Shown here: piece by piece, positions 3,142 through 64,000 of the stretch
Layout of the letters: each line of letters starts with the position of its first letter
Position numbering within the stretch: position 1 is the first letter of the stretch
Source of the DNA: Eledone cirrhosa
Taxonomy: Eukaryota
Direction of reading: 5' to 3'
Assembly (NCBI GenBank): GCA_964016885.1
Contig: OZ024743.1
Location: 41,292,001-41,356,000 of the forward strand
DNA: 64,000 bases
The notes under the pieces: generated by a model
What the model saw: only the letters and a program-made list of their open reading frames with translations
The model's database searches: none
What the model was told of the DNA's origin: nothing
Program-made: the position numbers and the translations under genes

Positions 3142-4751
3142 CAGTGCCCCGCAAAAGTATACAACACATTAGGAAAAATGCGGTTTTAGGTATTTTTAAT
3201 AAAGTTAGGGTAATGAAAATTTAACTACTGATAGAACATATAATGAGGCATTTAATGATACAATTATATTTTTAAAAAAATAACAAGGTAATAACTCAAG
3301 AAGAAAAATCAATATTTTTATAACACAAAAGTTTACAACACATTTATTAAATCATCTCTTAATATTTTGTAGCGTAACCTTTGTTGCTAACTACAGCCTG
3401 TAGGCATTTGGAGTAGCCTCCTACAAACTTCTTGGCTAATATTTTTCCATTCTTCACAACAAATTTTCTTTAGTTCAGGGATATTTTGGGGTTTCCTTTT
3501 TTTGAATTCTGAGTTTCAGTTCTCTCCACAAATTTTTGATCGGGTTAAGATCTGGAGACTGACATGGCCATTTTAGAACATTTGTTCCATTCGTACTTAA
3601 CCAAGATTGTGTTAGCTTTGCAGTATGCTTTGGATCGTTGTCTTGTTGAAAAAACCAAACGGGCTTTAAGCTGAGAGAATGTGCACTTTGATGTAAATTC
3701 CTTTGCAAGATACTTCTATAATAAGCGCCATCCATTCTTCCTTCCATTATTTCAATATTTCCTACACCAGTGGTACTAAAGCAACCCCAGACCATAACTG
3801 ATCCACCTCCAAATTTTACAGTTGGAATAGTATTCTTCAGCGAATATTCAGTACCTTTCTTTCTCCAGACTTTTGCCACAGCATTTCGCCAAAAAGTTCA
3901 ATTTTTGTTTCGTCTGACCAAAGTACATCTTCCCAAAATGACGCAGGTTTGATGAGATGCTCATTTGCAAAGTTTAATCGACGAAGAACGTGTTTCCTCG
4001 TAAGAAGTGGTGTGTTCCTTGGAGACTTCGAGAAGATATATCGATGTAGTGAACGACTAATTGTATCTGTGCTCACTTTTACTCCACTTCCTTCTAGGTC
4101 ATCCTAAAGATTTTAATGAGTACACCGGGGTTCGTTGCCAAGCTTTCTCGTCAATAACCGAGCTGCACGTTCCGTTATCTTTCTATCTTTCTAGGACGAC
4201 CATAACTAATTACAGGACAGATGGAATGATGAGATTTCCAGTGACGAATTATAGTACCAACTGAACTCAATGGCACATTTAACTGACAAGATATCTTTCT
4301 ATAACCAACACTATTTGTATGAAGGTCTACAATGCGTTTACGGAGGTCTTGATCAATCAGTTTATTTTTCCCCATATTGTCAATGTTTACAGGATGGTTG
4401 TCAATGTTTGCAGGACTGTTGTCAGACAAATAATGACGTAATGTTTTTAATTATCCTTAGAAGTTACCTTAAACCTAATCTAGAACATTCTACTGAATTT
4501 TAAATCTGAAAATTTAAGAATTTTCTTGAAAAAGAGCGATAAATAGAAAATGTGTTGTAAATTTTACGTTATAAAAATATTGATTTTTCTTCATGAATTA
4601 TTTCCTTGTTATTTTTTTTAAAAATATGATTGGATCATTAAATGCCTCATTATGTGTTCTATCAGTAGTTACATTTTCATTACCCTAACTTTATTAAAAA
4701 TACCTAAAACCGCATTTTTCTTAACGTGTTGTAAACTTTTGCGGGGCACTG
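3142..4751 (-). mobile_element. Tc1-like DNA transposon, IR/DR type, 1610 bp, complete but decayed
   Basis: Ends CAGTGCCCCGCAAAAGT...ACTTTTGCGGGGCACTG, flanked by TA on both sides; ~200-bp TIRs (3142-3345, 4548-4751) with the direct repeat caaaagt(a/t)tacaacacatt at outer and inner ends. Confidence 0.95.
3359..4375 (-). pseudogene. Tc1 (DD34E-type) transposase, several frameshifts
   Basis: MGKNKLIDQDLRKRIVDLH N-terminus; WSDETKIELFG, GGGSVMVWGCF, FQQDNDPKH, SPDLNPIKNLW (catalytic E replaced by K); ends KGYATKY*. Confidence 0.92.
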
Positions 4752-4854
4752 TATATACACATATATATACACATATATATATATACATATATATACATAT
4801 ATATATACATATATAAATATATATATATACATATATATACATATATATATACAT

Positions 4855-4893
<39 letters not shown>

Positions 4894-4958
4894 CATATAT
4901 ATATACATATATATATATACATATATATATACATATATATATACATATATATATATAC

Positions 4959-5041
<83 letters not shown>

Positions 5042-7484: not shown

Positions 7485-7516
<32 letters not shown>

Positions 7517-7781
7517 ACGGAAAAAATGAAACGATATTTCATTTCCCACTCTTAGTACGGCTGTTACTTAAATATAAGTATGTACACGTACATACATATA
7601 TGTATACCGACGTACAGTAGTATGTATATATATATATACATACATGCACACATATATATATGCACGTATGGATTCACCGAACATTTATTATAATGCTCGG
7701 TGTGTTTGTAAACAAACATCCCGTATTAAGCCGTAGTGTCTAGCAACCACCGTTGCTCATTTGTTCAACACTGACAAAGGA

Positions 7782-7824
7782 ACGCTGTACTAGTTTCAAG
7801 CTTGTTAGCTATCGTCAGCAACGT
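7782..7824 (-). ncRNA. Type I HHR of the 422-bp monomer, left arm (also 8204-8246, 8625-8667, 9047-9089, 9469-9511)
   Basis: Minus strand acgttg-CTGACGA-t-agct-aaca-agct-t-GAAAC-ta-GTA-cagcgt. Confidence 0.85.
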
Positions 7825-10158
7825 ATACCTTCCTGCCAGATTGTTGAACGTATATACTTACCTTATGCATATTAACGGCTGAGTAGCCCAATATGCATAT
7901 CGAGTGGGTTAATCGGCCGGGTGCACCGAAAACGATAAACGGAAAAAATGAAACGATATTTCATTTCCCACTCTTAGTACGGCTGTTACTTAAATATAAG
8001 TATGTACACGTACATACATATATGTATACCGACGTACAGTAGTATGTATATATATATATACATACATGCACACATATATATATGCACGTATGGATTCACC
8101 GAACATTTATTATAATGCTCGGTGTGTTTGTAAACAAACATCCCGTATTAAGCCGTAGTGTCTAGCAACCACCGTTGCTCATTTGTTCAACACTGACAAA
8201 GGAACGCTGTACTAGTTTCAAGCTTGTTAGCTATCGTCAGCAACGTATACCTTCCTGCCAGATTGTTGAACGTATATACTTACCTTATGCATATTAACGG
8301 CTGAGTAGCCCAATATGCATATCGAGTGGGTTAATCGGCCGGGTGCACCGAAAACGATAAACGGAAAAAATGAAACGATATTTCATTTCCCACTCTTAGT
8401 ACGGCTGTTACTTAAATATAAGTATGTACACGTACATACATATATGTATACCGACGTACAGTAGTATGTATATATATATATACATACATGCACACATATA
8501 TATATGCACGTATGGATTCACCGAACATTTATTATAATGCTCGGTGTGTTTGTAAACAAACATCCCGTATTAAGCGTAGTGTCTAGCAACCACCGTTGCT
8601 CATTTGTTCAACACTGACAAAGGAACGCTGTACTAGTTTCAAGCTTGTTAGCTATCGTCAGCAACGTATACCTTCCTGCCAGATTGTTGAACGTATATAC
8701 TTACCTTATGCATATTAACGGCTGAGTAGCCCAATATGCATATCGAGTGGGTTAATCGGCCGGGTGCACCGAAAACGATAAACGGAAAAAATGAAACGAT
8801 ATTTCATTTCCCACTCTTAGTACGGCTGTTACTTAAATATAAGTATGTACACGTACATACATATATGTATACCGACGTACAGTAGTATGTATATATATAT
8901 ATACATACATGCACACATATATATATGCACGTATGGATTCACCGAACATTTATTATAATGCTCGGTGTGTTTGTAAACAAACATCCCGTATTAAGCCGTA
9001 GTGTCTAGCAACCACCGTTGCTCATTTGTTCAACACTGACAAAGGAACGCTGTACTAGTTTCAAGCTTGTTAGCTATCGTCAGCAACGTATACCTTCCTG
9101 CCAGATTGTTGAACGTATATACTTACCTTATGCATATTAACGGCTGAGTAGCCCAATATGCATATCGAGTGGGTTAATCGGCCGGGTGCACCGAAAACGA
9201 TAAACGGAAAAAATGAAACGATATTTCATTTCCCACTCTTAGTACGGCTGTTACTTAAATATAAGTATGTACACGTACATACATATATGTATACCGACGT
9301 ACAGTAGTATGTATATATATATATACATACATGCACACATATATATATGCACGTATGGATTCACCGAACATTTATTATAATGCTCGGTGTGTTTGTAAAC
9401 AAACATCCCGTATTAAGCCGTAGTGTCTAGCAACCACCGTTGCTCATTTGTTCAACACTGACAAAGGAACGCTGTACTAGTTTCAAGCTTGTTAGCTATC
9501 GTCAGCAACGTATACCTTCCTGCCAGATTGTTGAACGTATATACTTACCTTATGCATATTAACGGCTGAGTAGCCCAATATGCATATCGAGTGGGTTAAT
9601 CGGCCGGGTGCACCGAAAACGATAAACGGAAAAAATGAAACGATATTTCATTTCCCACTCTTAGTACGGCTGTTACTTAAATATAAGTATGTACACGTAC
9701 ATACATATATGTATACCGACGTACAGTAGTATGTATATATATATATACATACATGCACACATATATATATGCACGTATGGATTCACCGAACATTTATTAT
9801 AATGCTCGGTGTGTTTGTAAACAAACATCCCGTATTAAGCCGTAGTGTCTAGCCGTAGTGTCTAGCATTATAATAAATGTTCGGTGAATCCATACGTGCA
9901 TATATATATGTGTGCATGTATGTATATATATATATACATACTACTGTACGTCGGTATACATATATGTATGTACGTGTACATACTTATATTTAAGTAACAG
10001 CCGTACTAAGAGTGGGAAATGAAATATCGTTTCATTTTTTCCGTTTATCGTTTTCGGTGCACCCGGCCGATTAACCCACTCGATATGCATATTGGGCTAC
10101 TCAGCCGTTAATATGCATAAGGTAAGTATATACGTTCAACAATCTGGCAGGAAGGTAT

Positions 10159-10201
10159 ACGTTGCTGACGATAGCTAACAAGCTTGAAACTAGTACAGCG
10201 T
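10159..10201 (+). ncRNA. Type I HHR of the 422-bp monomer, right arm (also 10581-10623, 11003-11045, 11425-11467)
   Basis: acgttg-CTGACGA-t-agct-aaca-agct-t-GAAAC-ta-GTA-cagcgt; stem I extends through ctggcagg/tttgtcag and gttcaaca/tgttgaac; palindromic ACTAGT at stem III. Confidence 0.85.
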
Positions 10202-11677
10202 TCCTTTGTCAGTGTTGAACAAATGAGCAACGGTGGTTGCTAGACACTACGGCTTAATACGGGATGTTTGTTTACAAACACACCGAGCATTATAATAAAT
10301 GTTCGGTGAATCCATACGTGCATATATATATGTGTGCATGTATGTATATATATATATACATACTACTGTACGTCGGTATACATATATGTATGTACGTGTA
10401 CATACTTATATTTAAGTAACAGCCGTACTAAGAGTGGGAAATGAAATATCGTTTCATTTTTTCCGTTTATCGTTTTCGGTGCACCCGGCCGATTAACCCA
10501 CTCGATATGCATATTGGGCTACTCAGCCGTTAATATGCATAAGGTAAGTATATACGTTCAACAATCTGGCAGGAAGGTATACGTTGCTGACGATAGCTAA
10601 CAAGCTTGAAACTAGTACAGCGTTCCTTTGTCAGTGTTGAACAAATGAGCAACGGTGGTTGCTAGACACTACGGCTTAATACGGGATGTTTGTTTACAAA
10701 CACACCGAGCATTATAATAAATGTTCGGTGAATCCATACGTGCATATATATATGTGTGCATGTATGTATATATATATATACATACTACTGTACGTCGGTA
10801 TACATATATGTATGTACGTGTACATACTTATATTTAAGTAACAGCCGTACTAAGAGTGGGAAATGAAATATCGTTTCATTTTTTCCGTTTATCGTTTTCG
10901 GTGCACCCGGCCGATTAACCCACTCGATATGCATATTGGGCTACTCAGCCGTTAATATGCATAAGGTAAGTATATACGTTCAACAATCTGGCAGGAAGGT
11001 ATACGTTGCTGACGATAGCTAACAAGCTTGAAACTAGTACAGCGTTCCTTTGTCAGTGTTGAACAAATGAGCAACGGTGGTTGCTAGACACTACGGCTTA
11101 ATACGGGATGTTTGTTTACAAACACACCGAGCATTATAATAAATGTTCGGTGAATCCATACGTGCATATATATATGTGTGCATGTATGTATATATATATA
11201 TACATACTACTGTACGTCGGTATACATATATGTATGTACGTGTACATACTTATATTTAAGTAACAGCCGTACTAAGAGTGGGAAATGAAATATCGTTTCA
11301 TTTTTTCCGTTTATCGTTTTCGGTGCACCCGGCCGATTAACCCACTCGATATGCATATTGGGCTACTCAGCCGTTAATATGCATAAGGTAAGTATATACG
11401 TTCAACAATCTGGCAGGAAGGTATACGTTGCTGACGATAGCTAACAAGCTTGAAACTAGTACAGCGTTCCTTTGTCAGTGTTGAACAAATGAGCAACGGT
11501 GGTTGCTAGACACTACGGCTTAATACGGGATGTTTGTTTACAAACACACCGAGCATTATAATAAATGTTCGGTGAATCCATACGTGCATATATATATGTG
11601 TGCATGTATGTATATATATATATACATACTACTGTACGTCGGTATACATATATGTATGTACGTGTACATACTTATAT

Positions 11678-13182: not shown

Positions 13183-15976
13183 TCAGGATTTGGGCACCAT
13201 GGCCCATTGGAGAAGAGAATTACTGTTTGCGGAGACATATCCTGGTGTGGGTGGTTTGTCCGCGATTACTTGGAGGAATTTGTCCAAAGACTTCTTGAAT
13301 TTTGTGTGGACAATTTCTGTTTTGACGTGTCCTTGTGTGATGTTGAAGAGAGTAGGCCCAATTGAGGTGAAATAATTGTGCCGTATTGTTGTTATGTGTT
13401 GCGATTTAGATTTTTGTTTGGGACGAATAGCACGGGGCCCAAGCCTTGGCTGTATTTTGAAGGTGATGCCAACATCATTTGGGCAGTGCTGATGAAACAT
13501 TTTCCACATCATGCAGATAATATAACGCTCACGGCGACGTTGGAGTGAGTAAAGTTTCAGCTTTTTAGTCGACCCCAGTAGTCAAGGTCTGAAATGCCAT
13601 CTATCTTTTTCGTGATTTCCCTTTGGGGAGCTTCAAGTTTCATGATACTTTGTTTCGTGTGGGGAGACCACAGTGGACAACAGTATTCAAGGTCTGGTCG
13701 GGCAAAGGTAGAGAAGAGAAGGATAATGGTGTGGGAATCTCTCGACTGGAAGGTTCTGGGGATCCAGGAACACATTCTACGGGCCATGTCAACTTTGATG
13801 CTTATATGCGTGGCCCAGCTTATGTTGCTGTCCACGGATACTCCCAAGTCTCTGATGTTGTTAGATGCCACGAGAGTTTCACCGGAGGGAAGGGAGTACG
13901 GGAGTTTCAGAGCATCCTCTTTTCCAAAGTGGATCAGTTCGAATTTGTCTTCGTTCAGTAACATGTTCTTTTCCGCCCATTGGGTAACAGCCAGTAGGTC
14001 TGACTGAAGTCTTATCCGGTCATCCACGCCATTGATGACCTTTTTGAGCTTGGAATCATCAGCTAAAATTCTAATGTTGCTGTGTTTGATGATGTCAGTG
14101 ATGTCATTAATATAGATGATGAAGAGAAGTGGGCCCAACACAGTGCCTTGTGGGACACCACTACTGACTTTGGCTGGGCTGGATTTGACTCCTTCGACTA
14201 CAACATGTTGGGTTTTGTTTGACAGGAAGCTCTTGATCCACTGCAGCAGCTTTCCAGTGACACCAATATTGGACAGCTTTCTCAGTAGAATGTTATGATC
14301 AACCCTGTCAAAGGCCTTGCTGAAATCAAGGTAGATAACATCAGTGTTGGAACCCTCTCCAAGACTCTCAAAATGTCATCAAAGTGATGCAGTAGCTGCG
14401 TCAGGCAATCCCTTCAATTACGGAATCCATGCTGGTTGGAGTTCAGCATATTGTTACTCTCAAGGAAGTGAGTCATTCGCGATCTCACCACTCTCTCAAA
14501 TACCTTAATGATATGAGAGGTGAGTGAGATTGGACGGTAATTCACGGCATGGGATTTGTTTCCTTTTTTGAAAACTGGGACAACGGACTGGGCTAGAATG
14601 TTTTCTGGCACATATCCAGCATCCAGTGAGTTCCGCCACAGATTGGCAAGAGGAGATGCAAGTTGGTGTTGACACGCCTTCAAGACACAAGCAGGAAACC
14701 TATAGGGATCTACTGCTGAATTATGCTTGATTTCCTTTATTGCCGCTAAGACATCAGGGGCGCCAAACGTTATGTCCGATAAGGTGTAATGGGGAGTAAC
14801 ATCGCCGATACAGCCCAGATCGGCCATATCAGGATTGCTGAAACAGAGCAGTATTGTTTCTGCAGTATCTCACCCATGGCTTATGTGTTGCTGCTGACAG
14901 TATTTCAGCTTGTTGATTTTTTTGTTAGTTCTCTTAATTTTCCTGATGAGCGTTTTTCTATTTCTAGGGATTCTGCTCTTAGATTTGTTTCTAGTTCTTA
15001 ATGGGGTGTGTTTTGCACATATGTTTGTAACAGTGTCCACAAATGTCTGCCAGGACTTTTTGATGTTAGTGGGTGTGTGAGTGTGCGTGAAGGACCAGTC
15101 GACATCTGCAAGATCATGACTGATCGCTTCCCAGTTTGCATTGTAGAAATCCATAGCGTCAAACGGAGGGACAGGAGAGATGACATTGGGTTTGTATAGT
15201 GGACGGTGGAATATCAGATCACAGAGAACCATGTCATGATCAGAGAGTAGAGTTTTCTCCACTGCAATATTGTGGATATTGTCAGTGTGTTTGCTGAAAA
15301 TTAAGTTTAGGACGTTTTTGTGGCACCTCGTTGGTTCGAGCACCAGTTGGGACAGGAAGAATTCATCCATGAAGTCAAGAAGCGATTCCACTGCTTCCCT
15401 GTCAGAGGTTGATGCAGAAGAACCTGGTGGCTGGCTGTTTGTGGACCAGTCAAGTCCGGGGAGGTTGAAGTCCCCCATCATTAAGATGTTGTCAGGGTGA
15501 CAATCTTGGATGAAACACTTTATGCTGTTGAGGCATTCCTTGAAGCATGGTAGAGGCGTTTGGGGTGGCCTATAGAGCCCAACTACTATTAGGTTGTTGG
15601 TTTGACTGAATACAGTGACTGCTTCGCAGTATCCATTAGTAAATATGTTCATAGCCTCTGTTGAGAAAGAATTATGGACATAAATGGCAGTCCCACCCTT
15701 TCTTCTGCCAGCGCGATCAGCACGGATGGCTTTGAAATTTTTCACTTTCACCTCGGCTTCCAAGTCGAGGTTACTGAGATGGGTTTCAGTGCGGACGTTG
15801 AAAGGGATGTGGTTTGGATGGACATCAACCCAGTCCTCCAGGAATTTGATATTCCATTTTTGAGTATTGGTGGAAGGGCTGATGCCTTGAGCGTTAAGCA
15901 TAAATGTTGAGGCGAGAGTGGATGGTTTTAATTGTTTTGGTGTGTTGTTAATTTGTTTGTTTGTTAATGGCAGCAA
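13183..15976 (-). pseudogene. LINE ORF2: APE endonuclease + reverse transcriptase, frameshifted
   Basis: LNAQG, TETHL, GGTAIYV, YRPP, MGDFN, SDH; YRPISLTS, QHGFR, GVPQGTVLGPLLF, LADD, DLGV, LEYCCPLWSP. Confidence 0.93.
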
Positions 15977-16189
15977 TGGGAGGTTGTGCAGTGGGGTGAT
16001 AGTGGAGGGTGGTGCTGGGTTATAGCTCGAATGTTTTTTTCCAGTTCTTTTGCCAAATTCATTATGGCGAAAAAAGAGGAAGAAGTTTCCTGTTTAGGAG
16101 TCTGTTGGTGACTGTGGTAGTGGTTATTTTTATGTAGGTTATGGTTTTTGTTTTTGCTTTTATTTTTATTTTTATTTTATTTTGTCCGA

Positions 16190-19351: not shown

Positions 19352-22300
19352 ATGTTCTGTTGTCTACGAAAAACCATAACATCTCGACAACTACACTTCA
19401 TAAAAGAATGTGCCTCATCCCGAGTTTACACCAACACCATCAACACCGACGTTAGAAGATTACAACTCACCAAAAAACGAGCAGATAGGCTAAAACGAAC
19501 ATTAATTCTAAACATAAAAAAGAAGATCTATAGAGAATTAAGTCATCAAGAAAAACATAAGCGTAACCTAATACAAGAAATAGCTAGGATCACCACACCA
19601 AGAGAGAAACTAATATTTATAAGCCTTATACACCCTGACGAACTGTACATTACTCAAGAATGTGATAAGCACTTTAACAAGAAACTAAAGTGGCTTAAGC
19701 AGATAAAGCTAAATCAGGATACTATAGAGAATACCAATAGATATCCCGACAAAATTGACGGTATAAATATGGCCGACACCTCATTAACAGAAGAGTTCAA
19801 CAACAACAACAACACAAATATATACGGTAACACAAGAATAGATGACGATGAGATGTATGTGTTATGTTTACCCCCGAAATTTGTGACATTCAAGAAGGTA
19901 AATATGATTAGTTGTCTATCAGAAATAGAAAAAATCATTTACAAAAGTACGCGGGGGTCTCAAAAACAAAAACAAAAACAAGAGCAACAATATACGCACA
20001 CACATATACAACCCACATCCCAACAACAACAGACACACAGACACAAACAACAATAACAACAACACACACACCAACAACAATAACAATAACAATATACCCA
20101 GAAACAACAACAGACACGCAGACACAAACAACAATAACAACACACACAACAATAATAACACATACGGAGACAACAACAACACACATCAACAACAGCACAC
20201 ATCAATAACAACAACACACACACATTCAATGCCTCTCACCACCACCACAATCTTAACAAACACACAGACACACAAAATAGGGTAGATAACAACAATGAGC
20301 CAGTGGAAAGAGACAGGAGTAATTGTGAGAGACATAGAAACAACCATTACGCTGTTGGTGGAAATAGAAATAGAAACAACACAACTAACAATAACAATAG
20401 CACTAGTACACATAAAGCAGCAGCCTGGAACTCTACGTTTTATAATCCCTCCGATAAATCATTCGACCTGTGACGAGTCCACCCCACGCGACTTTAGCAT
20501 TTAACAAACGCACGCAATTGCCGTCGCAGGTCGATGAACAAACAGAAGCACAATTTAGTATAGCTAGATCCGAACTTAGAAATATTATAGAACAGTATAG
20601 CAAGAAGCATAATAGAATGGAGGCCCAGCAACTGGGAGAAAAATCTGCAAATGGCTTGCGTAAGCTCATGCAGCGCTCATGTAATAGAGAGATAGCATGC
20701 TTTCCAACAGACAAGTCTGGCAGAATGTCGGTTGACAGCCTGCCAAACTACATCCAGGCAATGCAACCCCACATCACTAACACAAGAGAGGTAACACCAC
20801 AGGAGCATGAGGATAGAGAAAAAGCCCTCAATGCCCATATGGTGATGTGGAAGAATATAATGCAGCCCAACAAAAGGACTGCCAACAACTTCCAGGCCTG
20901 GAACAATGACGTGCCGGCGTTGTATGGGCTTCGAAAATACCATAAAACGGGCTGTGACCCTGTCGCGGGTCCACCAACACGGCCAGTCTGTGGAGCTAAC
21001 ATTGCTAGTAACTACAGACTGTCTTACTTCCTCTCCCTGATCATACGCCCCATCATTGAAATGTCCCCAGATGTATGTGGCAGAACGGAGGACCTCCTCA
21101 GCAGAATCGGCGTGAGTAACCGATCTGGGGACCTAATAAACTGCATAATAGGCAGTATGGATGTTGTGTCCCTGTATCCATCTATTGACGTGGATTTTGC
21201 TGTGGAGAAATGCGTAGAAATGATCAGTGAGAGCAAGGTTGAGTTCCGTGGGATTGATACCAGTGAGCTGGGACTCCTACTTAAACTTACCTATTGTAAT
21301 AATTACCTAGACACATATGACCTTAGCAACCAGTGCCCTACAAGACCAGCAAGAGGCAGACCGCCTACCATTACCTCAATGGCCAAGAAAACCAACACAT
21401 ATAGATAGAACGGGTGGATCAGAGCCATACGGACACCCGAAAACCACGATGAACTGAAGAAAATGATTGCACATGCGGTAGGGGCCAGCATAAAATTAAC
21501 CCTTAAGGAACATATGTTCAAATTTAATGGAAAAACATATGCCCAAGAGGAAGGAGCAGCCATTGGTGTTAGCATTGCAGGCGACATAGCTAACTTATTC
21601 ATGGTATGGTGGGGCAGTAGACTTAAACTTAAACTTAAAGAACAATTAGAAGACCCCTTAACCCTCATAATGTACTCCCGCTACGTAGATGATATAAACA
21701 TCGTAGTTAAGACACCCCCACTAGAGAACAGTCAGGAACTAGAGAAAAACACAATGGAAAGCATACAGCAAATAGCAAACTCCATCCACCAGAGCATTAG
21801 AGTTACTATAGACTACCCAAGTAAACACCCCAACCATCGATTACCTGTACTAGACACAGAGCTCTGGTTAGATACCATTAACAACAAAAAACAAATCCTC
21901 CATTCCCATTATGCCAAACCCATGACTTCCAAACATCTGATCCACCGAAACTCGGCCGTTTCGGACCATACCAAAATCAACATACTGATTGCGGATTTGG
22001 TACGGGTGATGAGAAATGTGTCCCGCATGTGCAACACCGAAGAACTAGAGAGACACATACAACACTTCATCCACCGTATGCAGTTCTCTGGCTACAATCA
22101 GAGAGATAAAATCAGAGTGTATAGAGGAGCCAGAACCAAATGGGAAAAAATGGTAAATAATGACATAAATGGGACCTGCCCCTTGTATAGGAGCAAATTT
22201 TGGAATAGAATAGAAAGAACTAGGAACAAGGCTAATAGAATAAACTCATGGTATGATAGCAATAAATACCAGAGTGTAATGTTCATCGATACAACCCCTA

Positions 22301-22790
22301 GAGGTGAATTAGCTTACAAATTTTGAAGGGCCCTAAATAAACATAAACTCAATATTAAGATAGTAGAAAGACCAGGTACCTCCGTAAAAACACTTATTAG
22401 CAAGACATACCCTTTTCAAAGACCCTCATATATAGATAAGTAATGTATAACCTGTAAAATAAGCCCCCATATTAACTGTAAAACTAGAAATGTAGTGTAT
22501 AGCATAAGATGTACTGAAGGACAATGTAGAGACAAAAATATAGTGTACATAGGTGAGACAGCTCGTAGTGTAGGGGAAAGGATAAATGAACACTGGCGAG
22601 ACCTTCAAGATAATAAAGAATCATCTGTACTCTAGCAACATGCTAAAATAGAACACAGGGGTAAATTAGAAAACATAGAGATAAAAATTGAAATCTACAC
22701 ACAGAAAAGACGCAATGTTTAGACAAATTACAGAGGCAATAAACATAAAAGAATTACGACCAAAATTAAATAGAAAATATGAGTGGAACA
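19352..22790 (+). pseudogene. Penelope RT + GIY-YIG endonuclease, with stops and frameshifts
   Basis: PTDKSGR, PTRPV, SMDVVSLYPSI, GAAIG, YSRYVDD, LPVLD; then CITC, NCKTRNVVYSIRC, YIGETARSVGERINEH, RQITEA, PKLNRKYEW; stops at 21406 and 22324 and further on. Confidence 0.92.
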
Positions 22791-23319: not shown

Positions 23320-25407
<2,088 letters not shown>

Positions 25408-26176
25408 ATTAATAAAATAATGAATAAACAAAGAAACAGTTCCTTATATTAAAAAAATTCATCATTTTACGATCGTTTCTAGGATATATATGTGTTAGAG
25501 TTGGTATGCATATTCTATAGATCTATGTACAATATTTATACAAACTATCAGAGGGAATATACATACCTACACATATATATGCTGTCTTCAGAAATAATGA
25601 TATTTGTTTATTGAAAAAAACAAAAATTCAATACAATAGGTCTGTTTGGGAACAGGTTTTGAATTGACCAATACAGAGATAGTGAGGGTCAAGATATTAA
25701 TATAGTAGTAGAAGAACCTTAAATTATGGGTAGAGGAAGGTCTATTTCAGTTTTAGATGGAAAAGAATATTATGAATGAAGGATTATTTTAGGGAAGGAG
25801 TAGGTCTTGTAATGACCTCAGAAATGATTTTATTTGTTCATTGAATAAAACCAACCAATAAGACAGCATATATATGTGTAGGTATGTATATTCCCTCTGA
25901 TAGTTTGTATAAATATTGTACATAGATCTATAGAATATGCATACCAACTCTAACACATGTGTATCCTAGAAACGATCGTAAAATGATGAATTTTTTTAAT
26001 ATAAGGAACGGTTTCCTTGTTTATTCATTATTTTATTAATTTATCTTGACTCTGTTTTCCGTTTATTTTTCACCGAAAGTAGTTTTTGAATGCATCTTCT
26101 CTTTTCATGATATCCGGATTACATTGAGTTCTTCATACGGATTGGCCACTACCGTAAACTTTTGGTAGATTTATCT

Positions 26177-26178
<2 letters not shown>
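25408..26178. mobile_element. Head-to-head pLTR-like element with HHR
   Basis: 25408-25588 is the reverse complement of 25860-26040; both outer ends run into TA tracts. Confidence 0.75.
25459..25600 (-). ncRNA. Type I HHR with ~105-nt stem II
   Basis: tcattattt-CTGAAGA-[long hairpin: atatatatgtgt/acacatatatat, ggtatgtatattc/gaatatgcatacc]-GAAAC-gatc-GTA-aaatgatga. Confidence 0.8.
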
Positions 26179-26200
<22 letters not shown>

Positions 26201-26207
<7 letters not shown>

Positions 26208-27027
26208 CGGACACACACATATACATGAATGCATCCACACCCAACCGTGAGTTAATGGTGCCAACCTCACCGATGTTGCTCAATGAATGACTGGGACAGA
26301 CCAATCCGGTTGAATTAGACTGAAACAGTATCAGAGTTAAAAATACATTATGAAGAGAGAAGAGGAATCTAGGAGCAGTTTAGGTATGATACATTTTATT
26401 ACTAATTATATCTAAATGTTTCTTCTCTCTTCATAATGTATTTTTAACTCTGATACTGGTTCAGTCTAATTCAACCGGATTGGTCTGTCCCAGTCATTCA
26501 TTGAGCAACATCGGTGAGGTTGGCACCATTAACTCACGGTTGGATGTGGATGCATTCATGTATATGTGTGTGTCTTCATGTATCTGTGTGTTTCTAAATA
26601 TATTGTTAACAACTCCCTCTGGTCGAGTAATCTTTGAAGTGTGGTGACTGCTGGAAAGCTGCCATTACTCATACTTCTCGCCTCCTTCACCACCTCTTCT
26701 ACGGCTTCGATATAAATACCCCCTCCGCCTCCGTGGTATTTTCTTCGGGGTTATAAGAGGCTTAGCTCTGTTTCTCGACCGTTATATCGCGTGACTATCT
26801 CCCCCTCCGCCTTTTGGGATTCTTTCTCACGTCGTGTAGACGCGCTCTTGATGCTAGTAAAATGAGGTATCCTCTTGATAAGTCGGCAGACCTCGCAAAG
26901 ACTCTATATCTTTATGATGTATTGTTTTTGTTTATGCCACGAAACTACGTAGTCGAGGAATCTAGGAGCAGTTTAGGTATGATACATTTTATTACTAATT
27001 ATATTTAATGTTTCTTCTCTCTTCATA

Positions 27028-27030
<3 letters not shown>
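26201..27030 (+). mobile_element. 593-nt retrozyme-like monomer plus ~76-nt terminal redundancy and inverted 5' arm
   Basis: 26362-26439 repeats at 26955-27030; 26201-26363 is the reverse complement of ~26420-26583. Confidence 0.8.
26870..26959 (+). ncRNA. Type I HHR with U3-A8 variant core
   Basis: tcctc-TTGATAA-gtcggca...tgccac-GAAAC-tacgta-GTC-gagga; palindromic ACTACGTAGT at stem III. Confidence 0.75.
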
Positions 27031-27101
<71 letters not shown>

Positions 27102-59407: not shown

Positions 59408-62288
59408 TTACGGGGCCAATGCACCCTTCGACCTGAACGGGTCGTATTTCTGTATGTTGGTGGGGAGGGGGGACGAAGAAACAAGTGTATGTGGCGAAGA
59501 AAAAGAAGGGGGCATTTGTGGTTCAAGTGTCACTGTGTCAGTGTCCAGATTGGCTCGTTTGAGGCGATCAACGGAAATAGTTTCCCTGGACCCCCTAATG
59601 TCCACCCTGAAATGTTTCTCTGTACGAGCAAGCACACGATAGGGTCCAGAGTACGGCCGTGTGAGAGGGGCCTCACAGCGTCGTCTCTAAGGAACACGTG
59701 TCCACAAGGCAATATCCCTTGGGACGGCAGTTTTTACAGTTTGCTTCCTAGTGTCCATCGGTGGTAAATCCTGGAAGTAAGAATGAAGCCGGGACACGTA
59801 GGAAGCGGGATCCTGCGAAGCAAGATCAACAGTAGCAAGCATTTGCCCCGGTAACGCAAGAGGAGTACCATAAATCAATTCGGCCGGGGAGAACCCAAGG
59901 TCCACCTTTATTGTCGACCGAATCCCTAACAACACAATAGATAGGTACTCAATCCAACGTGAAGAGTCCATTGAAGCCCTTAAAGAGGCTTTAAGCTGTC
60001 TGTGAAATCTTTCCACCATTCCGTTTGATGCTGGATGATATGCCGTGGTTCTTATGCGAGTAGCGCCGATAATTTGTGTTAATTCACGGAAGAGGTTCGA
60101 TTCAATTGACGACCGCGGTTCGTTGTTATTGTGGTTGGTACTCCAAAACGAGCGATCCATGCAGATACGAGAGTACACGCTGTCGTTTCAGCAGTGATAT
60201 CTGTCATAGGGATGGCTTCAGGCCAACGCGAACAACGGTCAACGATCGTCAAAATATAGGAATAACCATGACTAATCGGCCACGGGCCGACGATGTTCAC
60301 ATGATTGTGACGAAATCTGGCATCAGGACAGGTGGAAGTTCCGAGAGGAGTTTTAACGTACTTATGATCTTTTGACTTTTGGCAAGCGACACAGAAACGG
60401 CACCAAGCAGCAATGTCACGTCTCATATCAGGCCAGAAATATCTGGCTGTTATGAGTTTTACCGAGGCTGTAGCTCCTGGGTGAGAAATGCCATGCAAAG
60501 CGAGAAATACAGTTCGTCGATGACCAACTGGGACGAGAGGTCGTGGTGAGTCCAACGAGATATCACAAAGTATCTGTCCGTCAGCGGTTGATAAAGGAAG
60601 GTATTTCATATTGCAGTTAATGAACTCCGGCGATGTGCAATCCAATGATTCAAGCGAGGGTTGGTCAATGGCCATTTGACGCAAATCTATATCGTTAGAC
60701 GACGAGATCGAAGCAATCGGGAGGCGAGACAAGGCGTCTGCCGCAGTGTTCAAAGTACCCGGAATATGTTGAATATCATTGGTGTATTGGGAAACAAAAT
60801 CCAGATGTCTAGTTTCCCTAGGCGAATATTTGTCAGATTTTGATCTTAAAGCGAAAATCAACGGTTTGTGATCTGTGAAAATAGTGAACGCTCACCGTTC
60901 AGAACATGGGAGAAATGTTTCACATATAAATAAATTGCTAAAAGCTCACGCCCGAAAGTACTATAACGATTTTCGGCAGGCTTTAGCTTTCTCGAAAAAA
61001 ATTCCAGTGGTTATTGTAAACCATCGCACTTCTGTTGCAAGACTGCGCCCACGGCGGTATCCGACGCATCAACACAGAGCGATAGCTCGGCGTTGGGCAC
61101 TGGGTGGGCGAGCAAAGACGCGCTCGCTAACGCCTTTTTCACTTTTTTAAAATCCTCAAGCTGCGTTTTATTTATGGAAATGTCCATATTCTTACGCCGG
61201 CAATTTAAAAAAATTTCTGTCAACGAGAACAGCAAGTTGGAACAATTAGGTACAAATCGCCTATAAAAATTGACAAGGCTTAAGAATTGACGCAATTGTC
61301 GCAGTGAACTTGGCGGAGGCAAATCCGATACTGCCTTAACCTTCTCAGGAAGAGGTCGAATACCATCGGCGTCAATCAGATGGCCTAAAAATGTTAGTGA
61401 AGTCGAGCCGAAAACACACTTGGAAGCAATAATACGAACACTGTATTTCTGTAAACGGCGAAATAGGGTATCTAGATGTTTGGAATGTTGTTCAGGAGAA
61501 GAACTAGCAATCAGTACATCATCGATATAAGTGTAGACAAAATCGAGCCCACGAGTGACATCATCCATGAATCGTTGGAAGGTACTTGCAGCATTTCTAA
61601 GTCCGAAAGGCATAGTGAGGAACTCGAAAGATCCAAATGGAGTGGCAATAGAAGTCTTCGGAATATCCTCCTTGTTAACCGGAATCTGATTATAAGCACG
61701 AATCAAATCGAGCTTAGAAAAGATTGTGCAACCTTGTAATGAAGAAGCGAAATCCTGCAAATGCGGGATTGGATAACGGTCAGGCACAGTAATCGCGTTT
61801 AAGCGTCGGTAGTCACCCGTCGGCCTCCAATCACCAGAAGATTTAAGTACCATATGTAGAGGCGATGCCCAAGGACTTGTGGAACGCCGAATTATTCCTA
61901 ATTCCAGCATGTGGTCGAATTCAGTCCGTGCAGCTTTCAACTTCTCTGCAGACAATCTTCGAGGACGTGAGAAAACAGGTGGACATGTAGTGGATATAAT
62001 GTGTTCAATCACATGATCCGGACTAGCAATTCGTAATCTTCCTTGCGTTAGCTGTGGGAATGATTTTAACAAACTGTGATACTGGTTGCCCACTTCAGAC
62101 AAGAAAAAAGTAGGGCGCACTGTGGCGATCTCCGGCTTTGTACCCTCGAACGATAGGCCTGTTTTAGCATCAAAGAGTCGTTGTCTGCGGATGTCAATCG
62201 ACAAAGAAAAATGGTGGAGAAAATCCGCTCCCAAAATGGCGTATGGCAAGTCGGCGATAGTAAACTTCCACTTCAATTCACGACGCAA
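59408..62288 (-). pseudogene. Gypsy pol (RT, RNase H, integrase), frameshifted
   Basis: [57 protein letters not shown]...[38 protein letters not shown]. Confidence 0.95.
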
Positions 62289-62315
62289 ATTTTTTAACAG
62301 AAGAGGAAGCGAAAT

Positions 62316-63509
62316 TTACCCGTACGTTCGAATGGCCGTGTGGTTGACTGCTCGTAAATTTATATTTGATTCAGATGGGGTTTTTTTGAGATAACTGACT
62401 GGCCAAATACTCAGCGACGCGCCAGTATCGACAAGGAAAAATTTTTTCGACCGCAGGTCGTATACGAAAAGATGGCGGTTCGGTCGATTTTCCCAGAGTT
62501 CACTAGCCGCCCCTAGTGGCTCTGCTTTGCGTTTTCCGAATGGCTTGTAATTACAGGGCGTGCGACAACTTTGTGCCCTACTGCCGAAGTTAGTATGATA
62601 CCAACAAAACCAAGAATTATTGTTGTCTGAGTTGTAGTGCTGGCGATGAATAGAAGACGGCGGCGAACGGTACTCGTAGCGGTTTCGAGGAATAGCAGAC
62701 GAAGGCAAACGGTACTCGTAGCGGTTTCGAGGAATAGCAGACGGAGGCGAACGGTACTCGTAGCGGTTTCGAGGAATAGCAGACGGAGGCGAACGGTACT
62801 CGTAGCGGTTTCGAGGAATAGCAGACGGAGGCAAACGGTACTCGTAGCGGTTTCGAGGAATAGCAAACGGAGGCGAACGGTACCTCAAACGTTGAGAAGG
62901 CTCTCTGTGTTGTACGGTCAAATCCTCCACTTTTTGGGTAAGCGCTTCGATCATCTCCAACAGTTTGCTGTCGGCCACAGAAGAATTGCGTGGGAGAACA
63001 TGAGAAGAATCCACACAAGGATTATGCCGACTGCTGTTAGAGTCCACCTCTAGTATTCTATCCGCGGATGCGGCAAGTTGATCTAACGATTCCCTCTCCA
63101 AATTATTGACCAAGACCATCTGCGCACTTGGCGGTAAACGAGAGAAAAATAGTTGTTTGAGGAATGGGGAGTCCATCCCCTGGGAGTCGCTCAATTCCGA
63201 CAGATGTCGCAAATAGGAGCTTGGCGTCCTGTCACCCATTTGGGCATCATCTAACAATTCCCGAAAACGACTTTCCGCTGACTTGGTATTCCTCCGAATA
63301 ATTTCCCCTTTCAACGAGCCATAAGTAACGTCTGCGGCTAAATTGGTTACCACATCCTTCACAGAATATGCCAACGACACAGGCAAGCCACTAACTAGTA
63401 CCTTCAGTTTATGCTGTTCTTTGGTTTTGGTTAAATCAAAATAGCATTCAAGCTGCAAAAACAATAATTTGATGTCGCCTGCGAAGGACGGCAAATGATG
63501 TGGATTCAT
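62316..63509 (-). CDS. Gypsy gag + aspartic protease N-half (frameshifted from pol)
   Basis: 397-aa ORF: GDRTPS, CHCC knuckle, FLVDTGASLS. Confidence 0.88.
   Translation of the reverse strand: MNPHHLPSFAGDIKLLFLQLECYFDLTKTKEQHKLKVLVSGLPVSLAYSVKDVVTNLAADVTYGSLKGEIIRRNTKSAESRFRELLDDAQMGDRTPSSYLRHLSELSDSQGMDSPFLKQLFFSRLPPSAQMVLVNNLERESLDQLAASADRILEVDSNSSRHNPCVDSSHVLPRNSSVADSKLLEMIEALTQKVEDLTVQHREPSQRLRYRSPPFAIPRNRYEYRLPPSAIPRNRYEYRSPPSAIPRNRYEYRSPPSAIPRNRYEYRLPSSAIPRNRYEYRSPPSSIHRQHYNSDNNNSWFCWYHTNFGSRAQSCRTPCNYKPFGKRKAEPLGAASELWENRPNRHLFVYDLRSKKFFLVDTGASLSIWPVSYLKKTPSESNINLRAVNHTAIRTYG
62656..62885 (-). repeat. 42-bp coding tandem repeat in gag
   Basis: About five copies encoding R(S/L)PPSAIPRNRYEY. 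Confidence 0.9.
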
Positions 63510-64000
63510 GATTGCCGAAGAATCTCCCAGGACGAACTATGTCTTTGAAGCAGCCACTCGACCAAAAGGCCACACTGGAATCCAAAATCTTATTCACGCG
63601 AATTCAACTGAAATTCTTTTTGAAAATTCTCGCCGGCCAAAATAAAATTTGCATAATAAAAAAAATTATTTTCCATGAAAATTATTTGGTAAGAATATCC
63701 CAAGATGGCTGATTGAAAAATGTGTTTGTGATGAAGAAGCCGTCATGTGGCACGATGCCGCCAATCAGATGGCTGGGATTGAAGAAGACAAGCTGTACGC
63801 GGGAAAACAAAATTTTTGAGTCTCCATTTTGTTATTTTAACAGAAGGTTGAAAGCAAAATTTTATATCCAGAGAAATCCTTTTTTTTTTTTCTTTTTTAA
63901 AGAGAGAAGTTGATGCAAAAGGAAACATATTGTTCACTCAAAGACAAGATACCAAACAACAACGGGCCGGAATTCCATATATATATGTGCAGCGTCGCAC

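Follow-up and report, generated by a model that had tools for sequence, protein, structure and literature searches.

The window analysed here, a 64,000-nt stretch of the Eledone cirrhosa genome, contains an insertion whose sense arm begins at the predicted cleavage site of its own hammerhead ribozyme. Does such a start reveal how the template RNA was made, and by what route do insertions of this kind arise? The original prediction held that the template's 5′ end was produced by self-cleavage in vivo, and that the unusual U3-A8 core of the ribozyme was a compensated variant and not random decay. We consider both questions by comparing this copy with the rest of its family and with autonomous elements of the same genome.

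Layout of the insertion

With the repeat unit numbered m1 to m593 and m1 placed at window position 26362, the insertion consists of a sense arm and an inverted arm joined head to head between two microsatellite runs (Table 1). As had been read from this copy alone, a 593-nt direct repeat (26362/26955) makes the sense arm one full unit plus 76 nt, starting at the predicted cut (26954/26955); the 76-nt second copy carries one substitution and one deletion. The GA microhomology at the arm junction also stands: it is 2 nt long and leaves the start of the sense arm at m1, m2 or m3. No stop-to-stop frame of at least 120 aa is present in 26201-27030.

Table 1. Features of the insertion at 26201-27031 and its flanks (window positions)
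Feature	Position	Strand	Basis or remark
(TA)n target run, left flank	26180..26200		sequence
Inverted arm, m60/62 to m222; outward 3′ end at minor distal site m222	26201..26363	-	4 mismatches in 161 nt against sense arm
Head-to-head junction, GA microhomology of 2 nt; sense arm starts at m1, m2 or m3	26362..26363		arm comparison
Full 593-nt unit, predicted cut to predicted cut	26362..26954	+	9 differences from nearest subfamily majority
Proximal end site P (AATGTATT, m74-81), internal copy	26435..26442	+	family 3′ ends concentrate at m76-80
Minor distal end site, m217-222	26578..26583	+	2/118 distal-class ends, including left arm of this copy
Distal end site D (AATATATT, m236-243)	26597..26604	+	family 3′ ends concentrate at m242-247
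Predicted type I hammerhead: extended stem I, long stem II hairpin, palindromic stem III	26865..26963	+	predicted cut 26954/26955
Core UUGAUAA, U3-A8 variant	26875..26881	+	family consensus
Partial second unit to P site (m77-78), outward 3′ end of sense arm	26955..27031	+	sequence, unit alignment
(TG)2(TA)n target run, right flank	27032..27101		sequence

The predicted hammerhead and its U3-A8 core

Read from the sequence, stem I pairs TCCTC (26870-26874) with GAGGA (26955-26959). Stem II pairs GT(C)GGCA (26882-26888) with TGCCAC (26935-26940) and closes a 46-nt hairpin loop region; GAAA (26941-26944) is followed by the palindrome ACTACGTAGT (26944-26953) and by C17 at 26954. In the core, TTGATAA in the DNA, U3 is 26875 and A8 is 26880. 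The motif thus has the UUGAUAA/GAAA/UC core of a type I hammerhead with a Watson-Crick 3-8 pair, and stems I, II (G10.1-C11.1) and III surround the core, with stem I open. The minimum free energy fold of this copy forms stems I and II at a stability that is not unusual (z −0.98), and the circular fold of the unit gives z −4.7. Stem III is computed to have 2 bp in a monomer and to become a 10-bp palindromic duplex in a dimer (−14.3 kcal/mol).

No hammerhead family is among the 16 Rfam matches at E ≤ 10, possibly on account of the long loop II and the variant core, and the Rfam scan of the whole window returned microsatellite noise; a generic hammerhead scan of the window was blind to the site at 26865..26963 and so is uninformative. 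Among 246 ribozyme instances of the family, extracted from the stem III side, U3 is present in 245 (one gap), A8 in 245 (one G) and C3 in none, and 237 read TTGATAAG. UUGAUAA is therefore the family consensus, as the original prediction would have it. Because the motif is conserved in these 246 instances, we regard the hammerhead as no chance resemblance; and because the U3-A8 pair is the family consensus and recurs in two autonomous families of the genome (below), comparison of the copies marks it as inherited, not as decay.

The majorities of the five subfamilies described below differ at none of 44 core and main-stem positions against 36 of 593 overall, a contrast worth only P ≈ 0.06 when worked by hand. 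Seven of eight recurrent alleles at paired positions preserve pairing, all through a one-sided change; no two-sided compensatory change was seen in the hammerhead stems. When sisters sharing this stem III but having a short stem or a C3-G8 pair were sought, eight matches came up, all of them deletion or junction derivatives. In four coded runs, their kind unrecorded, the contigs carry no change at the core among the matches listed; we draw nothing from this about expression or other species.

The core variant is already known and is not new. U3-A8 hammerheads occur in Penelope-like elements of Schistosoma mansoni, with about 1,300 matches (PMC4209133), and natural 3-8 covariation has been described in a paper that also states, citing other work, earlier in vitro activity of U3-A8 (PMC3088659). 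The exchange from C3-G8 to U3-A8 in the S. mansoni Cercyon variant and in the natural covariants is the same as in the 593-nt family, and the hammerheads that these two papers describe likewise have a small palindromic stem III. What differs from those cases, as they are described, is that the pair is here fixed in a homogeneous young tandem family and also in two autonomous families of one genome.

As a separate matter, recurrent A>G alleles exceed T>C alleles on the sense strand of the family (23 of 130 A compared with 17 of 214 T; P 0.009), whereas G>A and C>T alleles are balanced, and several of the A>G alleles lie within the loop II hairpin. The excess could reflect A-to-I RNA editing, or else G-U pairs may be tolerated.

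A family of tandem and head-to-head copies

The host genome of 3.0 Gb is rich in (TA)n. When it was queried with 26362-27030, 111 of 1856 candidate matches were scored, the majority at 94-100% identity, and exact searches found 1504 matches to m1-23, 7857 to m44-64 and 2644 P-type ends; from sampled proportions we infer about 4,000-5,000 insertions. For detailed analysis (loci L001-L254) we retained 182 of 263 element records after removing exact duplicates and records cut by the edge of a locus, and one segmental duplicate was left out of most later counts.

The copies are dispersed over many contigs and include arrays with up to five crossings of the cut site. Sixty-eight full units yield five subfamilies of 591-595 nt, 7-38 positions apart, which take in 64 of the units and leave four unclustered. 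Nearly all outer ends (236/248) abut (TA)3, so that the target is a microsatellite and the 3′ ends are internal to the unit, without poly(A). Seventy-seven of the 182 elements are head-to-head, in the form of partial tandems with an inverted, 5′-truncated arm and an optional 3′ tail. In the features open to testing, the family appears to work like a young, non-coding non-LTR retrozyme.

Variant units are also propagated in tandem: a deletion variant recurs at 565-nt spacing within one array. In another element, L048, the same recurring jump from m144 to m563 is found in both arms, full and deleted units stand side by side, and both arms stop at m35.

Two fixed 3′ end sites, used one of each

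The outer 3′ ends fall at two places about 163 nt apart: a proximal site P (m72-86, mostly 80) and a distal site D (m218-252, mostly 242-247). Elements with a single arm use them about equally (53 P, 49 D and 1 other). Head-to-head elements use one of each: 70 of 77 have P on one side and D on the other, none has two P or two D ends, and each of the remaining 7 carries a single odd end (P 1.7e-21 if the two sites were chosen independently). The palindromic 8-mer AAT[AG]TATT occurs exactly twice per unit, at m74 and m236, that is, at the P and D sites.

Most terminal P ends (91/118) retain G77. Pairing of the primer is accordingly limited to 3 nt at most in the majority of cases, so that little of it is required, and a primer paired across the whole of ATGTAT was rejected on the same count. 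We also considered an RNA helix between P and D that is invaded by the two DNA ends. In local folds this helix has a median probability of 0.75 and exceeds 0.5 in 81% of the 68 units; in the whole circle its probability is near 0, with 7% above 0.5 and a cost of 4.5-7.8 kcal/mol. It is absent in the autonomous families A and B introduced below, and we keep it as a lead only.

The two arms of an element are nearly as similar to each other as the units within one arm. Units of the same arm diverge by 0.74%, those of the two arms by 0.95% and those of different young elements by 2.5%, and rare alleles are shared in 64 of 374 comparisons within arms and 33 of 293 between arms, against 3 of 4318 random pairs. 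Judged by these alleles, both arms of an element come from one source. In 25 of 66 two-armed elements neither arm is contained in the other, which excludes, for those 25, that one cDNA was folded back and copied. D arms extend past P in 53 of 67 cases, and if both arms are made on one molecule this would require strand displacement. The arm junctions mostly overlap by 0-5 nt, and both arms stop within 15 nt of each other in 10 of 67 rows, one of which is a duplicate while two had been picked by the m1 search.

5′ ends relative to the predicted cut site

If 5′ ends marked the ribozyme cut, they should pile up at GAGGA, as the original prediction proposed to check. They do not. C17 is retained in 1480 of the 1504 exact m1-23 matches; of the 24 without it, 15 are point changes with family sequence upstream and only 9, including the present copy, are junctions at m1. 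At the mean rate 2.0-2.3 such junctions would be expected (P 2e-4 to 7e-4) and at the local rate 4.1 (P 0.024), so that nine is an excess in either case. In a sample that is unbiased for the m1 region (the first 100 places of the m44-64 search, 67 arms) none of 86 passes stops at m1, and the 5′ ends occur at scattered positions of the unit; of the 115 passes in the young set, 2 stop at m1. Counting ends joined to (TA)n on one strand gives 45 in m577-m14 against 63 in m14-m44, for anchors that differ in copy number. Among the first 100 of 256 (TA)n-joined matches, which reduce by hand to 38 distinct loci, 2 lie at m1, 30 in m1-14 and 8 in m577-593. Eleven ends fall in m578-m20 where 5.1 are expected. 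Clustering of 5′ ends at m578-581, by the foot of stem II, was a post hoc observation.

Four elements have both arms ending near the cut site, three of them at the site itself, although the site is a TCGA palindrome and by itself favours symmetric joints. By far the commoner behaviour is to read through: the intact site is crossed by 136 of 149 arms, and 37 cross two or more sites, up to five. The sense arm of the present copy is among them. It passes the intact site at 26954/26955, so that a fully cleaved linear monomer could not have been its template; indeed, on a linear unit that had been cut, synthesis primed at m80 would run out after 80 nt. A minority of cleaved templates is plausible, given an excess of two to four times background, but one copy is insufficient to show it, and the claim that a single junction demonstrates self-cleavage in vivo does not hold. 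Because family copies mostly read straight through the site, the start of this insertion at the predicted cut is only weak evidence for a working ribozyme.

Autonomous Penelope-type families of the same genome

A first look at the genome for GIY-YIG frames gave 10,597 candidates, of which 150 were scored and 50 loci examined. The unit of family A (L298) is 4979 nt long and has a 938-aa frame with matches to a reverse transcriptase (28 bits, just under the Pfam cut-off) and to GIY-YIG, together with a CxxxxCxxC linker of the kind described for Neptune (PMC8557442). It carries a U3-A8 hammerhead that has stems unlike those of the retrozyme and is matched exactly 11,539 times. The ends of the family are found 82 and 150 nt past the cut site, and its head-to-head pairs follow the same rule as those of the retrozyme: 22 of 26 are P plus D, 4 have one unclassified side and none has two ends alike. 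An apparent D/D pair proved to be two separate insertions. The P plus D rule is thus common to the retrozyme and to an autonomous RT/GIY-YIG family.

Family B has a U3-A8 hammerhead with different stems again, a 37-nt tail and a single two-armed example, which is P plus D. Spacing between P and D in the three families is therefore 37, 68 and about 163 nt. The ends of the retrozyme have no significant similarity to those of families A and B (47-151 of 300 shuffles score equally), and none of the 50 GIY-YIG loci holds a pLTR partner homologous to the retrozyme, short shared words being all that was found.

Several minor observations concern these families. In family A, loci L321-L352 include many tiny two-armed copies, each arm of which ends some 40-90 nt upstream of the cut; a transcription start or a short RNA may lie behind this pile-up of 5′ ends. 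The predicted hammerhead of family B (L304, L310, L276 and the minus strand of window 40324-40388) is doubly variant, combining U3-A8 with C13 (GCAA for GAAA), a combination found in 16 of 29 motif matches. The word TTATTACTAATT, at m35-46 (window 26396-26407), lies 35-36 nt past the cut both in the retrozyme and in family B (L283, L284, L294 and L316), within an overall alignment that is not significant.

A proposed route of copying and its alternatives

The reading that we favour, with a probability of roughly 0.7, is that the retrozyme is copied by a Penelope-type reverse transcriptase/endonuclease that primes from both ends of the cut target on a single RNA, which is probably a circle. Its firmest part, and a very probable one, is twin priming at two fixed sites; that a circle is the usual template is a more guarded proposition, towards which the data lean. 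Tandem copies would be transcribed, and the RNA would cleave itself, probably as a dimer held by the palindromic stem III (the dimer logic follows PMC4209133). Units would then be ligated to a circle, by analogy with other retrozymes, for which RNA circles have been demonstrated (PMC7229834). A two-subunit Penelope enzyme might bind P and D and cut (TA)n on both strands, each DNA end then priming at its own site. Synthesis would roll on with strand displacement and halt at scattered points, after which the two cDNA ends could be joined via microhomology of 0-5 nt. Most 5′ ends would then be points where synthesis halted; a small minority, perhaps with the present copy, would be run-off ends from RNA cut at the ribozyme.

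Related biochemistry points both ways. A Penelope-like protein has been shown to start at two internal sites and to extend both strands, and is predicted to form a dimer (PMC11167929). In the same in vitro system, as reported, the start site does not differ between strands, no reads end at the cut site, ribozyme mutants insert normally and unprocessed RNA is the main template; cleavage has been detected in one of nine tested retrozymes (bioRxiv 10.64898/2026.07.22.740005). Also weighing against the favoured reading are the distal arm of the present copy, which ends at the minor site m222, the 50 GIY-YIG loci without a partner for the retrozyme, the hammerhead stems with no two-sided compensatory change and the elements whose two arms stop close together.

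The dominance of unprocessed RNA as substrate in vitro (PMC11167929) would suit the same twin priming on long linear read-through transcripts, with the ribozyme slow or idle and no circles. Some 99% of passes read through the cut site, in some elements both arms end together, and a linear read-through RNA suits the mixed units of L048, with both arms ending at m35, better than a unit circle does. Shared alleles would be expected, too, if two transcripts came from a single source locus, which counts against the reading that both arms come from one RNA. Linear templates would nevertheless lose 5′ sequence in each round, yet arms of young subfamilies have up to five crossings, so that some regenerating step would be needed; moreover, the core and stems look constrained and the tandem units of an arm are near-identical. 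We consider linear transcripts unlikely, though they are the most serious competitor of the circle. The self-cleaved linear unit of the original prediction, with 5′ ends that mark the cut and multimers made by template jumps at the cut ends, could explain the excess of starts at m1 (9/1504, two to four times expectation), the 11 ends in m578-m20 and the three elements with both arms ending at the site. Its jumps would need to leave no seam in about 99% of cases, no pass of the unbiased set stops at m1, the density of (TA)n-joined ends is no higher around the site than just downstream of it, and the TCGA palindrome alone favours the symmetric joints; as the normal route it is improbable.

Doubtful to a still greater degree is a fold-back, in which one cDNA snaps back and is copied as a second strand up to a fixed site. 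It is compatible with 41 of 66 two-armed elements, the present copy included, and self-priming from palindromic junctions has been proposed (PMC3846280), but the other 25 exclude it as the sole route, and since single arms end at P and D equally often, both sites prime directly. As for a satellite or MITE that spreads at the DNA level and whose ribozyme-like motif has decayed, the missing Rfam match and the ordinary local fold (z −0.98) would agree with it. Against it, the copies are dispersed at (TA)n targets, their 3′ ends being fixed and their 5′ ends scattered, the arms are unequal and variable, the core is invariant and autonomous retroelements end likewise, which together make it scarcely credible. 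Returning to the Penelope-type enzyme with a circular template, we offer one more specific form tentatively, at a little below even odds: an asymmetric pair would hold the RNA at two fixed sites, one for each target end, and both subunits would roll, displacing strands, round a circle made by the U3-A8 ribozyme. The spacing of the sites would be elastic, and the pLTR 'tail' would be the loop between the subunits, not a fixed element.

Relation to known retrozymes and Penelope-like elements

A preprint of July 2026 argues that non-LTR retrozymes of 51-972 bp are non-autonomous Penelope-like sequences (bioRxiv 10.64898/2026.07.22.740005), a range that includes 593 nt. Like the metazoan non-LTR retrozymes described there and in PMC7229834, the present family consists of non-coding tandem units with one type I hammerhead each, is low in G+C, and has thousands of copies and a proposed dependence on Penelope. 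It differs from those descriptions in its U3-A8 core, bulged stem II and long loop II; its unit is also longer than the retrozyme units of about 170-400 nt with proven circles, its own circle being a predicted one. Head-to-head arms, fixed ends and (TA)n targets characterise the 593-nt family, and we found no description of them in the accessible text on non-LTR retrozymes.

Compared with endonuclease-bearing Penelope-like elements of the Neptune and Nematis type, the family has no reading frame, and its tail is 163-167 nt against 30-40 nt in their pLTR (PMC8557442, PMC3846280, PMC11167929). A tail at only one end of the insertion has been described qualitatively (PMC8557442, PMC3846280) and has been connected with two start sites (PMC11167929). 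Here the one-of-each use of the sites is given as a count (70/77, none alike), whereas the Penelope papers, as far as their accessible text goes, are qualitative and the in vitro study reports no strand difference; in the accessible literature we found no count of strict one-of-each use and no 163-nt tail. The rule that both insertion ends are primed, from one RNA source and at two fixed sites, gives something countable for a mechanism that is still described as open. It is valid in parasite and autonomous element alike, accounts for the optional 'tail', and is testable in the existing in vitro Penelope system.

In LINE-1 twin priming, both target ends also prime on one RNA, giving an inverted 5′ part and a microhomology joint, but with a second site that is random and arms free of overlap. 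The 593-nt family, by contrast, has two fixed sites and overlapping arms that are longer than the unit.

Neighbouring elements in the window

The open reading frames of the window are of LINE and LTR type, with none of GIY-YIG type among them. Retroelement fragments, LINE-type (endonuclease, RT) and LTR-type (RT, RNase H, integrase), lie at 13560-16093, 21409-22323, 30765-33287 and 60079-63536. Immediately to the left of the insertion is another head-to-head repeat between (TA)n runs (25404-26180), with one arm ending about 136 nt before the other; the (TA)n run on its right-hand side holds the retrozyme. Fragments of this repeat recur in about 20 other sampled loci at 75-97% identity, and the part of it that was examined contains no hammerhead. 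Farther away, at 7515-11677, is a two-armed array of 422-nt units that has no similarity to the 593-nt unit and carries the canonical C3-G8 core (CTGACGA at 10165). Both core types, U3-A8 and C3-G8, are thus found within one window.
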